A program made the position numbers and the translations under genes. The notes below the pieces were generated by a model. It was not told the DNA's origin. It saw nothing but the letters and a program-made list of their open reading frames with translations, and did not search any database. A DNA stretch of 43,350 nt, from positions 1 to 43,350 of the IMG/VR virus record IMGVR_UViG_3300025870_001501. One strand, given 5' to 3'. Shown here piece by piece: positions 3,677-25,578 of this stretch. This stretch comes from a virus. Its lineage: Duplodnaviria; Caudoviricetes. The first letter of the stretch is position 1, and each line of letters begins with the position of its first letter.

Positions 3677-5581
3677 TTATTTCTTATCTTCTTCTTTGGG
3701 ATCAACTTCTTTAAAGTCAGCGTCTACAATATTTTCTTCTGTGCTTTCGCCTTGTTGTTCCGACTGTGCTTGTTCTTCTTGTGCTTGTTTGTACACTGCT
3801 TCGCCCAACTTCATACTGGCTTCTGTGAGTGTTTTGATTGCTTCTTGAATCTTACTCACATCATCTGTTTTGGATGCGTCGATTAAAGTTGCTTTGGCAT
3901 CTTCAATTGCTTTCTTTTCCTCTTCAGATATCTTGTCGCCATGCTCTTTGAGTTGCTTGTCGATTTGATGTGTCAGTGTTTCAGATTGGTTCTTTGTTTC
4001 TACCAACTCTCTTTTCTTCTTGTCTTCTTCTTTGTTGGCTTCTGCATCTTTAACCATCTGGTCAATGTCTTCATCTGAAAGTCCACCCGATGCTTGAATA
4101 GTGATCTTCTGTTCTTTGCCAGTGCCTTTGTCTTTGGCACTCACACTCAAGATACCATTTGCATCTATATCAAATGTAACTTCGATCTGTGGTAAACCTC
4201 TTGGAGCAGGTGCAATACCTTCAAGGTTAAAGTTACCCAGCAATTTGTTGTCCACTGCCATATCTCTTTCACCCTGTGTAACTCTGATGGTCACTGCCGC
4301 TTGGTTGTCTTCAGCAGTTGAAAACACTTGACTTTTCTTTGTGGGAATAGTTGTGTTCTTTTCTATTACTTTGGTTGTTACTCCGCCCAGTGTTTCAATA
4401 CCAAGTGATAAAGGTGTAACGTCTAACAACAATACATCTTTGACATCGCCTTGCAGTACTCCACCTTGAATAGCGGCACCCAATGCCACCACTTCATCTG
4501 GATTAACTCCTTTGTGTGGTTCTTTGCCAAAAAAGTCTTTGACTGTGTCAAACACTTTGGGCATTCTAGTCATACCACCTACTAACACCACTTCACTAAC
4601 ATCTTTTGCTGTGACCCCAGCATCTTTCAATGCCTGTTTGCAAGGAGAGAGTGTTCGTGCTATAAGATCACCAACTAAACTTTCCAATGTTGCTCTAGTC
4701 ATCTTTATGTTGATGTGTTTAGGTCCTGTTTTATCTGCTGTGATAAAAGGTAGATTGATGTCTGTTTGTGCGGTACTTGACAATTCTATTTTGGCTTTCT
4801 CAGCCGCCTCCCTCACACGTTGTACAGCCAATTTGTCGTTGGCTAAATCAATACCTTGATCTTTTTTAAATTCACTGATGATGTAATTTGTGATTGTAGC
4901 ATCAAAGTCTTCGCCACCCAGTGTTGTGTCACCATTTGTGGATTTAACTTCAAACACTCCGTCACCTAGTTCTAATATAGAAACATCAAATGTACCTCCA
5001 CCTAGATCGTACACAGCAATCGTGCCTGACTTTTTCTTATCCAGACCGTATGCCAACGCCGCCGCAGTTGGTTCATTGATAATTCTTTCCACTTCCAGTC
5101 CAGCAATCTTACCTGCGTCCTTTGTAGCCTTACGTTGACTGTCATTGAAGTACGCCGGTACAGTGATCACTGCCTTTGTAACTTCGGAACCTAGATATTT
5201 TTCTGCTGTTTCTTTCATCTTACGTAAAACAGAAGCAGAAATTTCAGATGGTGCATATTTTTTGCCATTGGCTTTAACCCAAGCATCACCGTTGTCTGCT
5301 TTCACAATTTCGTAAGGAAGTGTTTTGATATCTTTTTGCACAGCATCACCGTCGAATGTTCTACCAATCAAACGTTTCGCCGCAAATATTGTGTTGCTTG
5401 AATTGGATACTGCTTGTCTTTTTGCAGGCATACCAACCAATGTTTCAGAGTCTGTGAATGCTACCACACTTGGAGTGGTTCTTGCTCCTTCTGTATTTTC
5501 AATAACTTTTGCGTCCTTACCTTCCATCAAAGCAACACAAGAGTTTGTTGTACCCAAGTCTATTCCTATTATTTTACTCAT
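3677..5581 (-). CDS. dnaK: molecular chaperone DnaK (Hsp70)
   Basis: [37 protein letters not shown] signatures; 634 aa. Confidence 0.99.
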
Positions 5582-5589
5582 TTTAGTTT

Positions 5590-5605
5590 CTCCTTGTTAA
5601 GCGAG
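5590..5605 (-). promoter_or_regulatory. ROSE-like RNA thermometer hairpin sequestering the dnaK SD
   Basis: mRNA CUC-G-CUU-AAC-AAGGAG: UCGCU motif with bulged G paired to AGGAG. Confidence 0.6.
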
Positions 5606-5625
5606 TTTTTTTTATTATGTAAATT

Positions 5626-5653
5626 ATATAAGCACTCTTTGTCAAATGTCAAG
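5626..5653 (-). promoter_or_regulatory. RpoH (sigma32)-type promoter of dnaK
   Basis: CTTG-N17-CTTATAT, matching the alphaproteobacterial heat-shock consensus. Confidence 0.7.
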
Positions 5654-5666
5654 AGTTTTTGGTAAA

Positions 5667-7322
5667 CTAATCGTAGAAATCCCCAGATTTCATGTTAGTA
5701 TTTTCCACAGGATCCCAATCTTTCTTAACAGACTCGGGTTCATCAAACACTGACGCTCCTGTTGTGATTAATAATCCAGCAATACTTGAAGCATTTATTA
5801 ATGCTGTTTTTGACACTTTGGTAGGATCGATAATACCCAATTCCATCATGTCACCAAAATCACCTGTTCCAGCATCATAACCAAAGTTACCTTTACCTTT
5901 CAGTATTTCATTTATAATCACATCTGGCGATCCGCCTGCGTTCGCAATAATCTGTCTCACTGGAGATTCGAGTGCTTTCAACACAATCTGTATACCTGCT
6001 GTTTGATCTTCGTTGTCTCCTTGCAGATTTTCAATGTTTTGTTTGGCTCTTAAGAAAGCAACTCCACCACCTGGCACAACACCATCTTCAACTGCGGCTT
6101 TGGTAGCATTTAAGGCATCTTCAATTCTGTCTTTTTTCTCCTGCACTTCAACTTCAGTTGCGGCACCCACTCTAATCACTGCGACTCCGCCTGTAAGTTT
6201 GGCTAATCTTTCTTCTAATTTTCTTTTGTCATCGCCACCTTCACTCATTTCAATCTGTTTTTTAAGCTCTGCAACTCTGATGTCTATTTTAGATTTAAAT
6301 CCCTTGCCACCTATGATTGTGGTTGTGTTTTTGTCTACAACTACTCTTGATGCTTGTCCAAGGTCTTCCAATTTGGCTTTTTCTAAAGTTAATCCTGTGT
6401 CGTCTGATATCACTTCACCACCTGTTAGTGTTGCCATATCCTGCAACATTGCTTTTCTGCTGTTGCCATAACCCGGAGCATGAACTGCCGCACATCTAAT
6501 TGTGCCTTTGGCATTGTTCATCACTAATGTGGCTAGTGCCTCTCCTTCAGCATCTTCACACACAAATAAAAACGGTTTGTTCTTTTTGGCAAGTTCTTCT
6601 AATAGAGGAACAATTTCTTGAATAGTTCTAATGTGCTTACCTGTTAATATAATATAAACATCTTCCAATTCCACAAGTTGTTTTGCTGGATTGTTAATGA
6701 AGTACGGACTCATATAACCTCGATCAAATTGCAATCCTTCTACAACTTCCAGTTCATTCTTCATGGTCTTGCCTTTTTCAACAGTGATAACACCTTCTTT
6801 GCCAACCTTTTCCATAGCCTCAGCAATCATAGATCCTATGTCTTTGTCTGAGTTGGCAGATATAGTTCCAACTTGTTCTATTTCGTTCTGTGTTTTACAT
6901 TGTTTTGATATTTTAGAGAGTTGTTCAACCACTACATCAGTGGCTTTGTCCATTCCTCTTTTTAAATCCATTGGGTTCATGCCGGCAGTGATATACTTAA
7001 CACCTTCATTAACAATTGATTGAGCTAACACTGTGGCAGTGGTTGTTCCATCACCTGCTTCTTCGTTGGTTCTGCTGGCAACTTCCTTAACCATCTGAGC
7101 ACCCATGTTGGCTAGATCATCTTTTAATAAAATTTCTTTTGCTACTGTGACACCATCTTTGGTTATTGCTGGAGCACCCCATGTTCTCTGTAGAACAACA
7201 TTTCTACCTTTGGGTCCTAGAGTTATTCTCACAGCATTTGCTAGAATATCTACTCCTTGAATTAGTTTGCTTCTGCTACGAGATCCAAATTCTACTTTTT
7301 TTGTTTTACCATTAATTGCCAT
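5667..7322 (-). CDS. groEL: chaperonin GroEL (Cpn60)
   Basis: [37 protein letters not shown] motifs; no GGM tail. Confidence 0.99.
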
Positions 7323-12036: not shown

Positions 12037-13215
12037 ATGCTTTCAGTTAATCCTTTTCAGGACATCATCAACAATCTCAAAGAGTCTGGAAATTACAGAG
12101 TTTTCAATGACATTCTTCGTGAGAGAGGTGAATACCCAAATGCTATATGGTATGGCAAATACAATATTAAAAATATTGTGAATTGGTGTTCAAATGATTA
12201 CCTAGGTATGGGTCAACATAAGGTGGTTCTAGATGCTATGCATACTGCATTGGATCAAACAGGTGCAGGCTCTGGTGGGACTAGGAACATAGGTGGAACC
12301 AGTCACTACCATGTAGCACTTGAAATTGAATTGGCTAAACTGCACAGCACTGAGTCGGCATTACTTTACAGTTCTGCCTACGTTGCAAACGAATGGAGTC
12401 TAATTGCATTAAAACGCATCATTCCTGATATTGTGTTTATTAGTGACAGCAAGAATCATGCTTCATTAATACAAGGTATCAGACATAGTGGTGCTGAGAA
12501 ACATATTTTCAAACACAATGATCTCGAGCAATTGGAATCTATACTCAAAACTTGTAAAGGCACACCTTGTATTGTCTTTGAATCTGTGTATAGCATGGAT
12601 GGGTTCATGAGTAAAATTACGGAAATCTGTGACCTAGCAGAAAAGTATGGTGCTATCACATATCTTGATGAGGTTCACGCAGTCGGCTTGTATGGAAATA
12701 AAGGCGGAGGTGTTACTCAAAAATTAGATCTACAAGATCGAATAGATATTTTGAATGGTACACTTGGTAAAGCCTTTGGCACACAGGGAGGTTACATCGT
12801 TGGTAAGTCTATTGTTTTAGACGCAATACGTTCTGTTGCCTCGGGCTTTATCTTTACAACTTCAATGAGTCCTGTGATTTGTGCAGGTGCATTGGCAAGT
12901 GTCAAGTATGTTGCAGACAACAACGACTTAAGAATAAAACATCAAGAAAGAGCAAACAGACTTAAAGAAATTTTTCGACAGAAAAACATTCCAATGATTG
13001 AAAACGAAACTCACATAGTTCCGGTTCATGTTGGAGAGGCTAAGAAGTGTAAAGCAATCAGCGATACACTGATAAATGAATATGGAATATATTGTCAAGC
13101 AATAAATTATCCAACAGTTGAAGTAGGCACAGAGCGACTACGTTTTGCACCGACACCGTTCCATACAGATGCAATGATGCATGATTTAAGAGACGCTCTA
13201 GAAAAGGTACTATAA
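12037..13215 (+). CDS. hemA: 5-aminolevulinate synthase
   Basis: [42 protein letters not shown] (PLP Lys), FIFTTS. Confidence 0.96.
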
Positions 13216-13634
13216 TGAATAAGATAAAAAAATATTTGTATCAAGCATTGGGATTTCTATGTGTGGGTATTGCCTACATAGGTTTTGTTACTCCAGGAAT
13301 ACCATTCTCGATATTTTTAGTGGTTGCCGCTTGGGCATTTGCAAAGAGTTCACCTAAGATGGAGGCTTGGTTGTATAACCATCCATGGTTTGGTAAATTC
13401 TTAACCAACTGGACAAAGAAAAGAGTATTTCCTATAAAAGGAAAATACGCAATGATATTAGTAATGAGTTCCACTTTAGCATTTACTTGGTATTTCACAG
13501 GTAATATGAAAGCAGTATTATGGTCAGGCATATCCATGGCACTAGTGGCTGTTTGGGCATGGCGTTATCCTTCTACTGTAGAAGAACACAATGCCAGAGT
13601 GAAAGCAGGCAAGAAGATTGGTTGGCTAAAATAA
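13215..13634 (+). CDS. ybaN: YbaN/DUF454 inner-membrane protein
   Basis: IGFVTPGIP...FAKSSP...WLYNHPWFG; TAATG-coupled to hemA. Confidence 0.85.
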   Translation: MNKIKKYLYQALGFLCVGIAYIGFVTPGIPFSIFLVVAAWAFAKSSPKMEAWLYNHPWFGKFLTNWTKKRVFPIKGKYAMILVMSSTLAFTWYFTGNMKAVLWSGISMALVAVWAWRYPSTVEEHNARVKAGKKIGWLK

Positions 13635-13637
13635 TAT

Positions 13638-14213
13638 GTGTTTAAAAGAATAGAAAACGTATTATCAGAAGCAGACTACAATCAATTACACGATACATTA
13701 TCATCGTTCCAATTTGACTGGCACTACTTGCCATCGTCTGTTCCACCAGATGTAATAGATGTTGTAAGTAAATCAAACTCATTTAACTTATACGAGCCTG
13801 GACAATTTGTTCACATGTTCTACGATCAAAAACCGTTGAGTCCTTATTGGAAGTTGGTCGAACCTATTTTGAAATCACTAGATAAACCGGTGGTAGAGAT
13901 GGGCAGAATCAAAGCCAATTTATTGATGCAGAATAACAGCGATAATCATGCTGTGAATTGTCCACATGTGGATAGAGATCGAGAAGGTTGGCACAGTTTA
14001 ATATATTATCTTAACGACTCCGATGGTGACACTGTATTGTTCGATAAAAAAGGCAACAGCGGATGGGATAATTTACAAGTTCAAGACACAGTAACACCTA
14101 AGAAAAATACTGCTGTGCTGTTTGAAAGCGATCAGTATCATGCTGGAACGAATCCTGTTGACAACCCTAGACGAATTGTGTTAAACTTTATTTTAAAATT
14201 TAAAAATGACTGA
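13638..14213 (+). CDS. 2OG-Fe(II) oxygenase
   Basis: PHVD...YYLNDSDGDT...HAG...RRIVLNF. Confidence 0.85.
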   Translation: MFKRIENVLSEADYNQLHDTLSSFQFDWHYLPSSVPPDVIDVVSKSNSFNLYEPGQFVHMFYDQKPLSPYWKLVEPILKSLDKPVVEMGRIKANLLMQNNSDNHAVNCPHVDRDREGWHSLIYYLNDSDGDTVLFDKKGNSGWDNLQVQDTVTPKKNTAVLFESDQYHAGTNPVDNPRRIVLNFILKFKND

Positions 14214-14868
14214 TAAGAACTTTAATATGATTCCGTTGTTTGGTATACCTTTGTATCAAACTGTGATAGAACCTGGTGTTAGCGAAGAAGAATTAAAATT
14301 TATCAAAGAACAAAAGTACGAAAGATTTGCCGCAGACAACGGATTTGGTTCTGTGGATAAATTTTTGTTAGACAATCTAGAATTAAAACAGTTAAAACAA
14401 AAACTTTTACATAAATGTGAACACTACATTCACGAAGTGTTAGACATTGATGAATCTAAAGCAAAGTTTGACATCACAAATAGTTGGAGTGTGAAACATA
14501 TTAAAGGTGATGAAAGCGATGCTCACACTCATGCAGGTAGTATGTTCAGTGCTGTTTACTATCTTCAAACAGAACAAGACAGTGGAGAAATTGTTTTTCA
14601 TAAAGAAAAAACAAACTACAATGTCTTGACACCAACGGTGAATGTGCCATACAAAAATAAAAACTTTAATATCTGTAACTCAGACGTATTTGCTATGCCT
14701 CCTCAAAATAATATGATGGTAGTTTTTCCTTCAACATTACCACACAGTGTTGAGCCTAGTAAAAGTAACACAGAACGATTTTGTATTGCTTTTAATCTAT
14801 TTGCTTTTGGCAAATTTGATCAAGGAGGAAGATCTCAATTAGGTTTACTCAACATTACAAAAACATAA
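14206..14868 (+). CDS. putative 2OG-Fe(II) oxygenase (TIGR02466-like)
   Basis: HTH...FSAVYYL...VFPSTLPHSV...RFCIAFN. Confidence 0.85.
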   Translation: MTDKNFNMIPLFGIPLYQTVIEPGVSEEELKFIKEQKYERFAADNGFGSVDKFLLDNLELKQLKQKLLHKCEHYIHEVLDIDESKAKFDITNSWSVKHIKGDESDAHTHAGSMFSAVYYLQTEQDSGEIVFHKEKTNYNVLTPTVNVPYKNKNFNICNSDVFAMPPQNNMMVVFPSTLPHSVEPSKSNTERFCIAFNLFAFGKFDQGGRSQLGLLNITKT

Positions 14869-21084: not shown

Positions 21085-21834
21085 ATGACAAGTTTTTTAC
21101 GACAATTATTCCGCGATAAATCAAACGCCATAATGCTATTAACAAGCAGTTTGATCATTGCCATCTGTGCGTTGGCTCCGGCCTTGTTTGTGATTATTGT
21201 GTTGAACAAGTATCTAGCATCTGGAGTTACATCCACCCTGATATCTTTGGGTATGGGTGCCATACTATTGTTGGCATTTGAATTTGGTTTCAGACAGAAC
21301 AGAGCAGGCATGATACAGCAGTTGAACATTAGGATATTCACTCCATTGTTGAATGCATATGCAAAAAAGATTAAAGAAACTCAGATCACAGGAGAACAGT
21401 TTAAAAGATTAGAAGTTGCAGGTGGAACAATTAAGGGTGCAACCGGTTCCAGCATTACTGGTTGGATATTGGATTGGCCATTTGTGTTGGCATTTCTTAT
21501 TGTGCTACTCTATATCAATTGGACAGCGGCTTTGATTGCTGGGATATTCATGATCATCATGATGGTGTTAACAGCACAGAGATTGAATCTCAGTCTACAA
21601 CAGGACAGCACAGCAAATTTAGAAATATTTTTAACAGGACTAATGACAGTGGTCATCATGTCAGTGGGTGCGACACAAATTATCGCAGGTTCATTGGACG
21701 TGGGATTATTAATAGGTTCCAACATATTGGCGGCAAGAGCACTGCAAGGTGCTAACAAATATGCCAAAGCAAAGGAGGCAATAGAAAAACGTGACCGAGC
21801 AACAGCAGAAATCATCAATTTCATCAAACAATAA
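21085..21834 (+). CDS. T1SS ABC-transporter transmembrane domain only (no NBD)
   Basis: LAPALFVIIVLNKYL...STL, LDWPF, GSLDVGLLIGSNILAARAL match PrtD/LapB-type TMD; no Walker A or LSGGQ. Confidence 0.8.
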   Translation: MTSFLRQLFRDKSNAIMLLTSSLIIAICALAPALFVIIVLNKYLASGVTSTLISLGMGAILLLAFEFGFRQNRAGMIQQLNIRIFTPLLNAYAKKIKETQITGEQFKRLEVAGGTIKGATGSSITGWILDWPFVLAFLIVLLYINWTAALIAGIFMIIMMVLTAQRLNLSLQQDSTANLEIFLTGLMTVVIMSVGATQIIAGSLDVGLLIGSNILAARALQGANKYAKAKEAIEKRDRATAEIINFIKQ

Positions 21835-22516
21835 ATTCTTTGGCTTGTTGACAAGTCTATTTGTTGTGTTCTTTGTATGGATGTCATTTTCCAAAGTCGA
21901 TATAACTTCTGTCGCCAACGGACTGGTAATACCTGAAAAAAATATCACAACACTTGGCACAATGGTTACAGGAGAAATTGTGAAAGTGAACCACAAGCAA
22001 GGAGACGTGGTTAAAAAAGGCGACATCATAATCACAATTAATCCCGGAGTAGGATACGAACCTTATCACATACGAGCAAACATAGATGGGAAGATACAAC
22101 AACTTACATTTAAAAATCCAGGCTCTGTGGTAAAACAAGGTGACGCACTGGCAGTGCTGGTACCCCTAGATCAAAAATTAATTGTTCAAGGACAATTGCA
22201 AATAAAAGACAGAGGCTATGTAGAAGTAGGACAAACAGCAAAAATTAAATTGGCAAGTTCAGAAGCATTCACATACCTTCCAATAGTAGCCAAGATAATT
22301 TCCATATCTCCTGATGCTGTACAAGGACAAGCAATGTCGTTCTATGAAATAGAATTAGAATTAGATTCACAGGCTTTTGCCAACGGAGACTTGCAGTACA
22401 AACTAGTGCCTGGTGTACAAGTACACGTGTTTATCTTGACTGGAGAACGTACAATATTGAGTTACGTGACAACACCCTTTCACAACAGCATAGGCATGGC
22501 ACTACAGGAGAGATAA
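21791..22516 (+). CDS. HlyD family membrane fusion protein, helical hairpin missing
   Basis: N-terminal TM; GEIVKV..KQGDVVKKGD; IRANIDG; ISPDA; LVPG; TGERTILSY; only 241 aa. Confidence 0.85.
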   Translation: MTEQQQKSSISSNNKFFGLLTSLFVVFFVWMSFSKVDITSVANGLVIPEKNITTLGTMVTGEIVKVNHKQGDVVKKGDIIITINPGVGYEPYHIRANIDGKIQQLTFKNPGSVVKQGDALAVLVPLDQKLIVQGQLQIKDRGYVEVGQTAKIKLASSEAFTYLPIVAKIISISPDAVQGQAMSFYEIELELDSQAFANGDLQYKLVPGVQVHVFILTGERTILSYVTTPFHNSIGMALQER

Positions 22517-22517
22517 C

Positions 22518-22874
22518 ATGGAACAAAAGAAATTAACAATCAGGGAAAGATGGCGTAAGGCTATGACTGCGGACAACATGGTTGATCTCAGTGTTGACAT
22601 CTTCCTCATTGTGTTCGACGTGTTGAGCTCTCCCATACTGATCGTCATGAGAATTGTGCGTTGGATATTGGCCAAGTTCGTCAATGACCATGTAAAGAGT
22701 TTTATCAAGAGGATAGTGCATTGGTTCTTGGACAACAGGAAGATCAGACTAGAACGAGGACAGAACATATTCCGTTACTACTGGTACCTGTGGATGTTGA
22801 GTCCTTTTATTGTTTTTGCGTTGTGGATGCTGATAGCAGTCACAATAGGATTAAGACAAGGTGCAGGACTGTAA
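22518..22874 (+). CDS. small membrane protein
   Basis: Two hydrophobic segments; GGAG RBS; TAATG-coupled to the cyclase. Confidence 0.75.
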   Translation: MEQKKLTIRERWRKAMTADNMVDLSVDIFLIVFDVLSSPILIVMRIVRWILAKFVNDHVKSFIKRIVHWFLDNRKIRLERGQNIFRYYWYLWMLSPFIVFALWMLIAVTIGLRQGAGL

Positions 22875-24799
22875 TGAAGATATTCACAAGCATATGGATG
22901 GTGATAGTGTTTGCGATTGTGCTGACAGGAATCAGGATAGACAACAGCGACACAGTAAAAATTATTAGATATAAGACTTGGGACAAATTTCAAACAATTC
23001 AACCAAGACAGATGGTAAGTGATTCTGTCACTGTTGTAAACATCACAGAACAAGATATTAAGACGTATGGACAATGGCCATGGCCCAGACATGTGATGGC
23101 TATGCTACACGCAGAGTTGTCTGATGCAGGTGCAATCCTTGTGAACTACAATATAATGTTTGCTGAACCAGACAGAATGAGTGGTGTTGAATATCTAAAA
23201 TCAATGCCTATGACCAATGATTTGCGAGAGCAATTGGGACAAGCATTGTTGGACACAGATGCAATATTCTCCATAGTGTTGAAAGAATCTAAGAAAGCCA
23301 TTTTAATGATGAGTGTTAAAAACACTGCTGACACAAACTTACCCAGCACAACACAGATCATAGAAAAAGGCAACGTGAAGCCATGGTTATACGAGTATGA
23401 AGGCATAGTGTCCCCAAATGCAAAAGTTTCCGTAGGTGCAACAGGCATGGGTGTGAATGTTACTTCACCGGAACCAGATGCTGTTGTGAGAAAGATGCCT
23501 GTGTTAATACGTGTGGGAGATAAGATATATCCCTCTATGCTACTAGAGAATGTTAGACTTTTAAATAAATCAAAAAGAATCAAAGTCATAGCAAAACAAC
23601 ACGGCATAGACGAAGTGCTTGTGAGCAAGAAGGCAGGTATACCTGTGAATCATAATGCAGAAATGTATATCAACTATGCAGACCCTTCAATGTATGTTAA
23701 TGTGTCAGCCACAGATATACTGACAGGCAATTACAACGAAAACAAAGTTAAAGGCAGAATTATTGTTATAGGTTTGGATGCCGCAGGATTGAGTGTGTTG
23801 AAATATACACCGCATGGACTTACAACAGATCAAATGATTACTGCCCAATCATTGGATACATTGTTAACAGGCAAATATTTGTTGCGTACACCACAAGCAG
23901 ACACATATGAAATTGCGTTCCTGGCGTTGTTATTATTGCTGTTGATATTAGTACTGCCTAGAACCAGTGTGTTGTTGGCTGTACCTCTTTTATTATTTGT
24001 GGAAGTAGGTGTTGCCTACGGAGCATTCACGGCATACACTAACAAAGGATTTCTTGTAGACCCATCTTGGATAATGTTGTCTGTGTTTTTAATTTGGTCT
24101 CATTCTGTGTACAACAACTTTGCGACACAGAGCAGATTGAAACAACAGATCAAGAAACAGTTTGAACACTACCTTGATCCTGGCATGGTTAAAAAATTAC
24201 AAAAGGATCCCAGCCTACTTAAACTGGGAGGCGAGACAAAGAACATGACTTTCTTGTTCTGTGACATCAGGGGCTTCACACCTATCAGTGAGAAGTACAA
24301 AGGCAATCCAGCAGGACTCACAAAACTTATTAATAGATTCTTGACACGCATGACAGATGTTATAATCTCAAATGGTGGAACAATAGACAAGTTTATGGGT
24401 GACTGTATTATGGCATTCTGGAACGCACCTATTGAAAATAAAAAACACAGAGAACTAGCAGTTAAAAGTTCTTTGGAAATGACTGTGGCATTGGCAGAAT
24501 TGAATATGCATCTACAAGCAGAAGGACTTCCACAGATCAACATAGGAATAGGAATCAACACAGGCGATGCATTGGTGGGTAACATGGGATCGGAACAGAG
24601 ATTTGATTACTCTGTGATTGGCGATGCAGTTAATCTAGCAAGTAGATTAGAGAGCTCATCTAAAACATTAGGCAAAACCATAGTGATAGGTGAGAACACA
24701 AGACACACAATAGAAACAGTTTACCCGTTTGAGTACATTGACAGCATCACAGTCAAAGGTAAGACTGAAAATATAAAAGTTTATACTATTCCTTTATAG
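22874..24799 (+). CDS. CHASE2-domain class III adenylate cyclase
   Basis: GQWPWPR CHASE2 motif; 3 TM; CDIRGFT, DKFMGD, DYSVIGDAVNLASRLE with all catalytic and ATP-specifying residues; start reassigned to ATG 22874. Confidence 0.93.
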   Translation: MKIFTSIWMVIVFAIVLTGIRIDNSDTVKIIRYKTWDKFQTIQPRQMVSDSVTVVNITEQDIKTYGQWPWPRHVMAMLHAELSDAGAILVNYNIMFAEPDRMSGVEYLKSMPMTNDLREQLGQALLDTDAIFSIVLKESKKAILMMSVKNTADTNLPSTTQIIEKGNVKPWLYEYEGIVSPNAKVSVGATGMGVNVTSPEPDAVVRKMPVLIRVGDKIYPSMLLENVRLLNKSKRIKVIAKQHGIDEVLVSKKAGIPVNHNAEMYINYADPSMYVNVSATDILTGNYNENKVKGRIIVIGLDAAGLSVLKYTPHGLTTDQMITAQSLDTLLTGKYLLRTPQADTYEIAFLALLLLLLILVLPRTSVLLAVPLLLFVEVGVAYGAFTAYTNKGFLVDPSWIMLSVFLIWSHSVYNNFATQSRLKQQIKKQFEHYLDPGMVKKLQKDPSLLKLGGETKNMTFLFCDIRGFTPISEKYKGNPAGLTKLINRFLTRMTDVIISNGGTIDKFMGDCIMAFWNAPIENKKHRELAVKSSLEMTVALAELNMHLQAEGLPQINIGIGINTGDALVGNMGSEQRFDYSVIGDAVNLASRLESSSKTLGKTIVIGENTRHTIETVYPFEYIDSITVKGKTENIKVYTIPL

Positions 24800-25297: not shown

Positions 25298-25578
25298 CAG
25301 TCTTTCCTCGCATCTGTCTTGCCGTCTGCTCTAGCCACCCTGTCTGTGTCTATTGGCAATCCTAGTTGTTCGGAAACTTCTTGGTCTATTTTAAGTATGT
25401 CGTTGTTCATGGTCTTCACCCTGTTGTCCAGTTGTGAGATCACAGTCTCGATGAACTTGATGGAGTTTACTATGCCATTCAGGATGTATTTTATAATGAA
25501 CAGTATGAATACACCCATTCCCACTGTGGCGGCAATTGGTAATCCTAGCTCTGCTACTAATTGAAAGAACTGTGTCAT
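25297..25578 (-). CDS. small holin-like membrane protein, paralogue of neighbour
   Basis: VAELGLPIAA + TM + LDNRVKTMNNDILKI (neighbour: LIDRIRLLDNDLIRL); TATAAATA upstream. Confidence 0.65.
   Translation of the reverse strand: MTQFFQLVAELGLPIAATVGMGVFILFIIKYILNGIVNSIKFIETVISQLDNRVKTMNNDILKIDQEVSEQLGLPIDTDRVARADGKTDARKD

Follow-up and report, generated by a model that had tools for sequence, protein, structure and literature searches.

Does a type I secretion adaptor require its helical hairpin chiefly for bridging the periplasm, or for unlocking the TolC channel? This is an old question, as is the need for ATP beyond the start of type I secretion. Both are raised by a locus in a 43,350-nucleotide stretch of viral DNA (the window; IMG/VR record IMGVR_UViG_3300025870_001501), a phage record that is about 12% complete, in which an adaptor of the HlyD/PrtE type carries a short loop in place of the hairpin. 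The genes around it occur in a constant order: giant protein, TolC, ABC domain, adaptor, an optional small protein and a CHASE2 cyclase (Table 1). The giant lies directly 5' of TolC in every locus that reaches that far. The small two-TM protein appears dispensable, as it is absent in, for example, L004 and L119. A small membrane ORF follows the cyclase (window positions 25319-25564, minus strand) and is kept in several relatives, on either strand.

Table 1. Positions of the cassette features in the window.
Feature	Position	Strand	Remarks
Giant acidic protein, 1219 aa	15645..19304	+	net charge -200; no signal peptide
TolC-family outer-membrane channel, 578 aa	19318..21054	+	signal peptide
H7/H8 tip of phage TolC	20902..20940	+	F529, S534, A538, G541 at Y362, R367, D371, D374
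PrtD/LapB-type ABC membrane domain only, 249 aa	21085..21834	+	six hydrophobic segments
Hairpin-less HlyD/PrtE-type adaptor, 241 aa	21791..22516	+	GTG start
10-residue loop (residues 84-93, between I83 and I94)	22040..22069	+	in place of a helical domain of ~190-200 aa
Small two-TM protein, 118 aa	22518..22874	+	no family; found in 38/71 loci
CHASE2 membrane adenylate/guanylate cyclase	22874..24799	+	ATG at 22874; found in 66/71 loci

The adaptor lacks the whole helical domain

The adaptor consists of a short cytoplasmic tail, a TM helix (residues ~9-33), a continuous lipoyl domain, a beta-barrel and a C-terminal helix, and the motifs quoted in the preliminary description of this DNA are all present in the ORF at 21791-22516. 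Pfam and NCBIfam both group it with HlyD-type adaptors, with a TIGR01843 score of 161.2 against a curated cut-off of 208.65 bits, which leaves it under the cut-off. Alignment to the solved HlyD structure (8DCK) places adaptor residue 84 at HlyD 128 and residue 93 at HlyD 329; 8 adaptor residues stand for 200 residues of HlyD. An AlphaFold2 model based on a 124-row alignment has a pLDDT of 91.8 and contains no helix between the strands at 79-84 and 92-95. The N-terminal TM anchor, lipoyl domain and beta-barrel of HlyD-type adaptors are thus present, and neither the alignment nor the model contains the long alpha-helical periplasmic domain with its TolC-binding tip. The proposal that this is an HlyD adaptor with the hairpin excised is borne out by both, and the retained hairpin that a structure prediction might have revealed is absent from the model. 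The adaptor shares with the HlyD/PrtE/LipC adaptors (TIGR01843; 8DCK, 7SGR, 5NEN) the TM anchor, split lipoyl halves, beta-barrel, C-terminal motif and gene order with ABC and TolC, and differs from them in the loss of the whole helical domain and in a partner ABC protein that lacks its ATPase domain.

The best eight fold matches of the adaptor model are all BesA (E 3e-12), the adaptor of the Borrelia BesABC pump (4KKS/4KKT/4KKU). The available text of PMC3807786 describes a 9-residue loop in place of the hairpin in BesA, and that of PMC4446572 a disrupted gate in the partner channel BesC. The phage adaptor is similar in having a loop of 9-10 residues for the hairpin and a partner channel whose gates are predicted to be disrupted. 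BesA, however, is a lipoprotein with a membrane-proximal domain and serves an RND drug pump with a periplasmic dome, whereas the phage adaptor has a TM helix, a type I C-terminus and an ABC-derived, domeless partner, and the two are only 23-24% identical. Judged from its sequence, the phage adaptor is a descendant of a type I adaptor, separate from BesA.

The deletion is conserved and under purifying selection

The loop is present in 66 of 71 phage-type loci, in 50 distinct proteins; of the other five loci, four miss the junction and one has a mini-hairpin. As most of these loci had been found using the adaptor as the query, a second search was made with the ABC domain; it returned 20 loci, of which 19 were contigs already known to carry the loop and one was the mini-hairpin contig. 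The best 120 of 1565 clusters of adaptor homologues are all 241 aa in length. Single contigs span the junction widely in three of four independent DNA studies and narrowly in the fourth, and the loop is encoded by 32 distinct DNA versions, its protein sequence nearly invariant and its synonymous sites variable. Against the window, adaptor omega values are 0.03-0.09 in eight of nine pairs, the ninth being saturated; those of the ABC domain and TolC are 0.05-0.13 and 0.05-0.11, respectively. The hairpin deletion is therefore under purifying selection and is not an assembly artefact, a concern raised at the outset that the independent assemblies, the 32 DNA versions and the low omega rule out; the conservation across homologues that had been proposed as a check is equally clear. 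The phage loop was seen in none of the 25 loci found by scanning GTDB with the adaptor alignment. RNA libraries contain fragments of the cassette, one of them across the loop, although contigs cannot show transcription. A decaying remnant or an assembly error is hardly credible as an explanation: three independent truncations in adjoining genes speak for it, but the idea is largely refuted by omega values of 0.03-0.13 across all three genes, uniform gene lengths and the independent assemblies.

The lipoyl domain is under unusual constraint in the main phage groups. Comparison of group A with group C gives a pN of 0.10 for the lipoyl domain and 0.28 for the barrel (pS is saturated in both), and lipoyl identity to L082 is 83-89% in the main phage groups against at most 77% in 25 comparable full-length pairs; the excess constraint is absent in groups D and E. 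The constraint in the main groups is compatible with a new contact surface on the lipoyl domain, although it does not show one.

The most divergent phage version seen (L120:2-1313, ~46% identity) still has the loop and the ATPase-less ABC domain. A distant HlyD-like protein of 262 aa (P0324; 30% identity) has a junction of 14 residues and seems to have lost its hairpin separately. Identities of ABC, adaptor barrel and lipoyl domain disagree across loci (L082:9992-10693 and L081), and such mosaics suggest frequent recombination.

The partner ABC protein has no ATPase domain

The ABC protein stops after its sixth helix, without an ATPase domain, and lacks ~56 residues of the cytoplasmic TM4-TM5 region present in its closest full-length relatives, which are labeled LapB/PrtD-like and, where named, are mostly alphaproteobacterial. 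All 51 complete phage partner genes encode 248-252 aa and none includes an ATPase domain; a Walker A motif was found in none of 59 phage ABC loci. Five phage records (55-172 kb, 15-47% complete) contain no type I ATPase elsewhere, and no separate gene encoding a hairpin was found in these partial records. Their sole ABC ATPase over the cut-off is, we presume, SufC-like and part of a suf cluster. A related phage record (L096:237-2187) carries Suf-like Fe-S cluster genes, which by reading we name SufB, SufE and SufC.

By the features of classical type I secretion, the cassette has a TolC-family channel and a giant that is acidic, lacks a signal peptide and ends in an RTX motif, and it lacks an NBD-bearing ABC exporter. 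The suggestion that the complex is not a classical exporter is accordingly supported by the missing ATPase domain (51/51), the missing hairpin and the altered TolC gates described below.

The TolC channel has lost its gate residues

In a profile alignment, T152, D153, Y362, R367, D371 and D374 of Escherichia coli TolC correspond to L330, E331, F529, S534, A538 and G541 of the phage protein, and both turns lie at the expected places in an AlphaFold2 model. Each of the 39 distinct phage TolC ends carries S or T at 367, A or G at 371, and G at 374; F stands at 362 in 37 of them. In the bacterial TolCs of the parent family, T152, D153, R367 and D or E at 371 are kept in 15/15 distinct complete sequences, a set from which a frameshifted copy and a more distant TolC were excluded; these 15 have A, S or T at 374, so that D374 was already lost there. 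According to the accessible text of PMC8277102, Y362F with R367S raises the conductance of E. coli TolC up to 800-1000 pS, the aspartate rings act as a cation filter, and VceC and EefC also lack equivalent gate residues. Gate loss is thus not confined to hairpin-less systems, since VceC/EefC and the mini-hairpin phage L119 are also affected. M537 falls at the position of the OprM hydrophobic plug L412, and the phage channel may therefore still be sealed.

The second job of the hairpin, the unlocking of TolC, appears to have become unnecessary in the phage set. The TolC tips are 96-97% conserved compared with 88% for the core, a comparison that has no outside control. When the phage TolC profile was run against PDB sequences, the best three matches were open-state mutants and wild-type TolC was unlisted even at E 1; we do not count this ranking as evidence. 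When TolC (23-578) was co-folded with two copies of the adaptor (34-241), the score was 0.02 against a mark of 0.32; from a run without controls, this speaks neither for nor against a contact.

The giant protein and the search for a bridge

The giant comprises an N-terminal FecR-like domain, an acidic E/Q/K-rich stalk, cadherin repeats and a C-terminal RTX motif, and would be the substrate of the cassette. Its N-terminus matches the retention domain of MpIBP (5IX9; 73 profile positions, E 2.4e-6), which served as the template for the LapA retention module in the part of bioRxiv 10.1101/198937 that was available. The giant is for this reason better read as cargo threaded through TolC, and by homology it would be retained in the TolC pore. 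LapA/LapBCE and MpIBP are likewise giant RTX adhesins in which a homologous N-terminal domain precedes a low-complexity linker, but they are served by a complete ATP-driven exporter with LapG/LapD control, whereas a CHASE2 cyclase is the neighbor here; a family scan of the window proteins found neither a LapG protease nor a LapD receptor. Net charge per residue is -0.15 to -0.19 in 11 phage giants and -0.05 to -0.15 in eight bacterial giants, six of them partial. The E/Q/K-rich region of the 11 phage giants covers ~140-490 residues, with ~-20 to -59 charges per 100 residues.

The preliminary description had suggested that the periplasmic bridge is supplied by the coiled-coil stalk of the giant or by the N-terminal extension of TolC, either of which would replace the hairpin as a conduit. 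The stalk fails in this role: in two of the 11 phage giants (L029, L091) it is missing, replaced by a short acidic Pro-rich linker, although the adaptor loop is the same, and hence it is not the bridge. Elsewhere it is very variable and acidic, and a bacterial parent giant, whose adaptor has the full hairpin, already has an acidic stretch behind its FecR domain. The extension (roughly residues 23-165, a two-cysteine beta-meander and a charged linker) is phage-specific, being found in 24/24 full-length phage TolCs and 0/6 bacterial relatives, and it has an invariant cysteine pair and modeled helices at 89-117 and 136-162, all of which speak for a structural role as a conduit. Its length, however, ranges over 114-192 aa, its second helix is mostly missing in L091 and L094, and its pLDDT is mostly <50; no match was found in the ESM Atlas. 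A conduit made of stalk or extension is consequently unlikely; as a rigid bridge the extension does not hold up, and it is possible only as a flexible tether.

A further alternative does without protein export. Here TolC would be ungated and the membrane domain passive, and together they would conduct small molecules or ions, either for uptake or for depolarization that brings about superinfection exclusion; the giant would be dealt with apart from them. Passive flow of this kind would be allowed by the loss of the anion-repelling ring, the lock and ATP coupling, and an import role is proposed for the curli pore of pelagiphages in the available text of PMC9599517. A giant that has no signal peptide, has an RTX tail and a retention-type N-terminus and is encoded directly 5' of TolC fits this poorly, and we regard it as quite improbable.

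The published pelagiphage module of curli (T8SS), FecR and adenylate cyclase (PMC9599517, as far as its text was available) resembles the present cassette in combining a phage-borne outer-membrane pore, a FecR protein and a cyclase, and it also lacks its usual gate (CsgE). It adjoins this cassette in L088. The secretion machinery is unrelated, and the main text of PMC9599517, as available, contains neither TolC nor HlyD. In L088:683-7394 and L092:3848-10536, a CsgG-FecR cassette with its own cyclase lies beside the present one (Pfam checked for L088).

Bacterial relatives and the order of loss

In a class sample of 401 genomes, which we take to be alphaproteobacterial, the parent family occurs in ten, all of which (10/10) have an ATPase-bearing ABC protein and a full-length adaptor; the TolC search of the same genomes at E 1e-40 returned 0/401, a threshold that is too strict. 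The complete bacterial relatives have, as called, ABC proteins of 548-620 aa and adaptors of 430-501 aa. These parent cassettes (L109-L118, L123) provide the closest full-length ABC, adaptor and TolC proteins, and two of them include a giant with the same FecR domain (40-43% identity). Unlike the phage loci, they keep the ATPase, the full hairpin and the TolC lock and have no TolC extension, and no cyclase match was found in the ten regions read. One parent cassette has a TPR + GT41 glycosyltransferase gene between the giant and ABC genes (L110:5712-7991).

Two phage-type adaptors, in L119 (1864-2724) and P0216, retain 64 residues at the junction. Matched to a profile built from 83 full helical domains (195 positions), this mini-hairpin falls at positions 86-141, the central TolC-binding tip, with a score that none of 200 shuffles reached. 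L119 has the same ATPase-less ABC protein and the same unlocked TolC gates, its TolC N-terminus lying off the contig. Compared with L082, the mini-hairpin adaptors are 42-44% identical in the lipoyl domain and 79-83% in the barrel; P0216 and L119 fall below all 23 loop-bearing rows in the lipoyl tree (bootstrap 99) and are nested inside them in the barrel tree. The conflict suggests recombination between mini-hairpin and loop alleles, although AU tests rejected neither tree constraint (p 0.07 and 0.26) and the conflict is not significant. Since the tip must descend from a hairpin-bearing ancestor, the simplest order is loss of the ATPase and shortening of the hairpin, followed by its complete loss. 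A stepwise loss is thus likely, on trees whose conflict is not significant. Other adaptors of the parent family are also shortened, with 79 (P0232), 93 (P0228), 145 (P0249) and 58 (P0242) residues of the helical domain; P0242 retains the base of this domain and not the tip, and P0228 is labeled Methylococcales.

The bacterial relatives also supply the main rival to a self-sufficient phage device, in which a complete type I system of the host would move the giant. In that case the phage TolC would serve as an additional pore for retention. The short adaptor and the membrane domain of the phage would act as a scaffold, or as subunits mixed into the host complex, and hold the periplasmic domain of the giant by the cyclase for signaling. 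Such borrowing requires no new energy source; complete relatives exist (10/401 genomes), the cyclase is present in 66/71 loci, and the curli-FecR-cyclase module offers a parallel (PMC9599517, available text). In the available part of PMC11026475, the HlyB-HlyD assembly is described as consisting of three dimers and six HlyD, so that it has space for subunits that do not pump. The same sample also weakens the case, as the family is found in only 10/401 genomes. Phage and bacterial subunits are only ~30% identical, the altered TolC tip is poorly suited to docking a host hairpin, and a tunnel of mixed subunits would be open wherever one of them lacks the hairpin. Borrowed export is a serious possibility, if still improbable on this evidence.

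A putative self-unlocked export device

Taken together, these results suggest that the adaptor, the ATPase-less ABC domain and the lock-less TolC form a putative self-unlocked, ATP-free device that threads the giant through the envelope of the infected cell and retains it beside a cAMP sensor, a tentative reading to which we assign a probability of about 0.45. By means of its TM helix and barrel, the adaptor would still form a ring on the membrane domain. Once TolC had lost its lock, the channel would open without the help of a hairpin, and the hairpin would have shrunk to its tip and later disappeared. There would be no long sealed tunnel; the exposed lipoyl ring would make direct or transient contact with the tip of TolC, perhaps with the N-terminal extension of TolC as a helping tether. 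A chain with a net charge of -200 would be strongly driven outward by the membrane potential and ratcheted by calcium binding; the acidic giant would be moved by this potential and by calcium-driven folding outside, and would stay threaded in TolC by its N-terminal domain, able to talk to the CHASE2 cyclase.

In favor of the self-unlocked device we count the loss of the gate, the BesA/BesC precedent, the stepwise loss, the lipoyl constraint, the traits of the giant and the absence of a type I ATPase from the five phage records. Against it we count that the bacterial parent giants are acidic too and that the ATPase search covered records with a completeness of only 15-47%. Its weakest steps are energy and distance. 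No precedent was found for ATP-independent export by a type I system. The periplasmic barrel of TolC measures ~100 Å; together with the lipoyl and barrel domains it falls short of a typical periplasm, and as there is no dome, the two membranes would need to be unusually close. In RND pumps, a 70 Å periplasmic dome (BesB) lifts BesA, according to the available text of PMC3807786. The most complete version of this reading, a phage-built type I machine with neither ATPase nor periplasmic tunnel, in which potential and calcium folding pull the giant through a passive pore, a bare lipoyl ring docks on an unlocked TolC and the retained giant reports to a cAMP cyclase, is rather doubtful.

Hairpin-less adaptors are already known in RND pumps (BesA), as are phage modules of pore, FecR and cyclase for curli (PMC9599517, available text). 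The phage set would be the second lineage after BesA/BesC in which hairpin loss is paired with gate loss and, as far as the literature found goes, the first for type I protein export; the threading and anchoring of a giant by a phage set is likely a manner not described for type I secretion. Literature searches on phage-borne type I systems, on SAR11 type I secretion and on periplasm width, with most subscription journals outside their scope, found nothing describing this set. The alleles form a natural series under strong selection, from full hairpin, ATPase and locked TolC through a tip-only hairpin to no hairpin, so that the roles of the hairpin and of ATP can both be tested with natural alleles. 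The family also points to surface remodeling and sensing in infected cells as a widespread strategy of ocean phages.

The phages and their genomes

The loci belong to a family of large uncultured ocean phages: relatives of the window are fragments of 137-172 kb with an estimated completeness of 29-47%, which implies large genomes. Among cultured phages there was no close relative, only six weak matches, all <35%. The window itself also encodes, at 3677-7322 and 12037-14868, DnaK, GroEL, a 5-aminolevulinate synthase-like enzyme, DUF454 and several 2OG-Fe(II) oxygenases. The 5-aminolevulinate synthase-like gene presumably indicates an alphaproteobacterial host.
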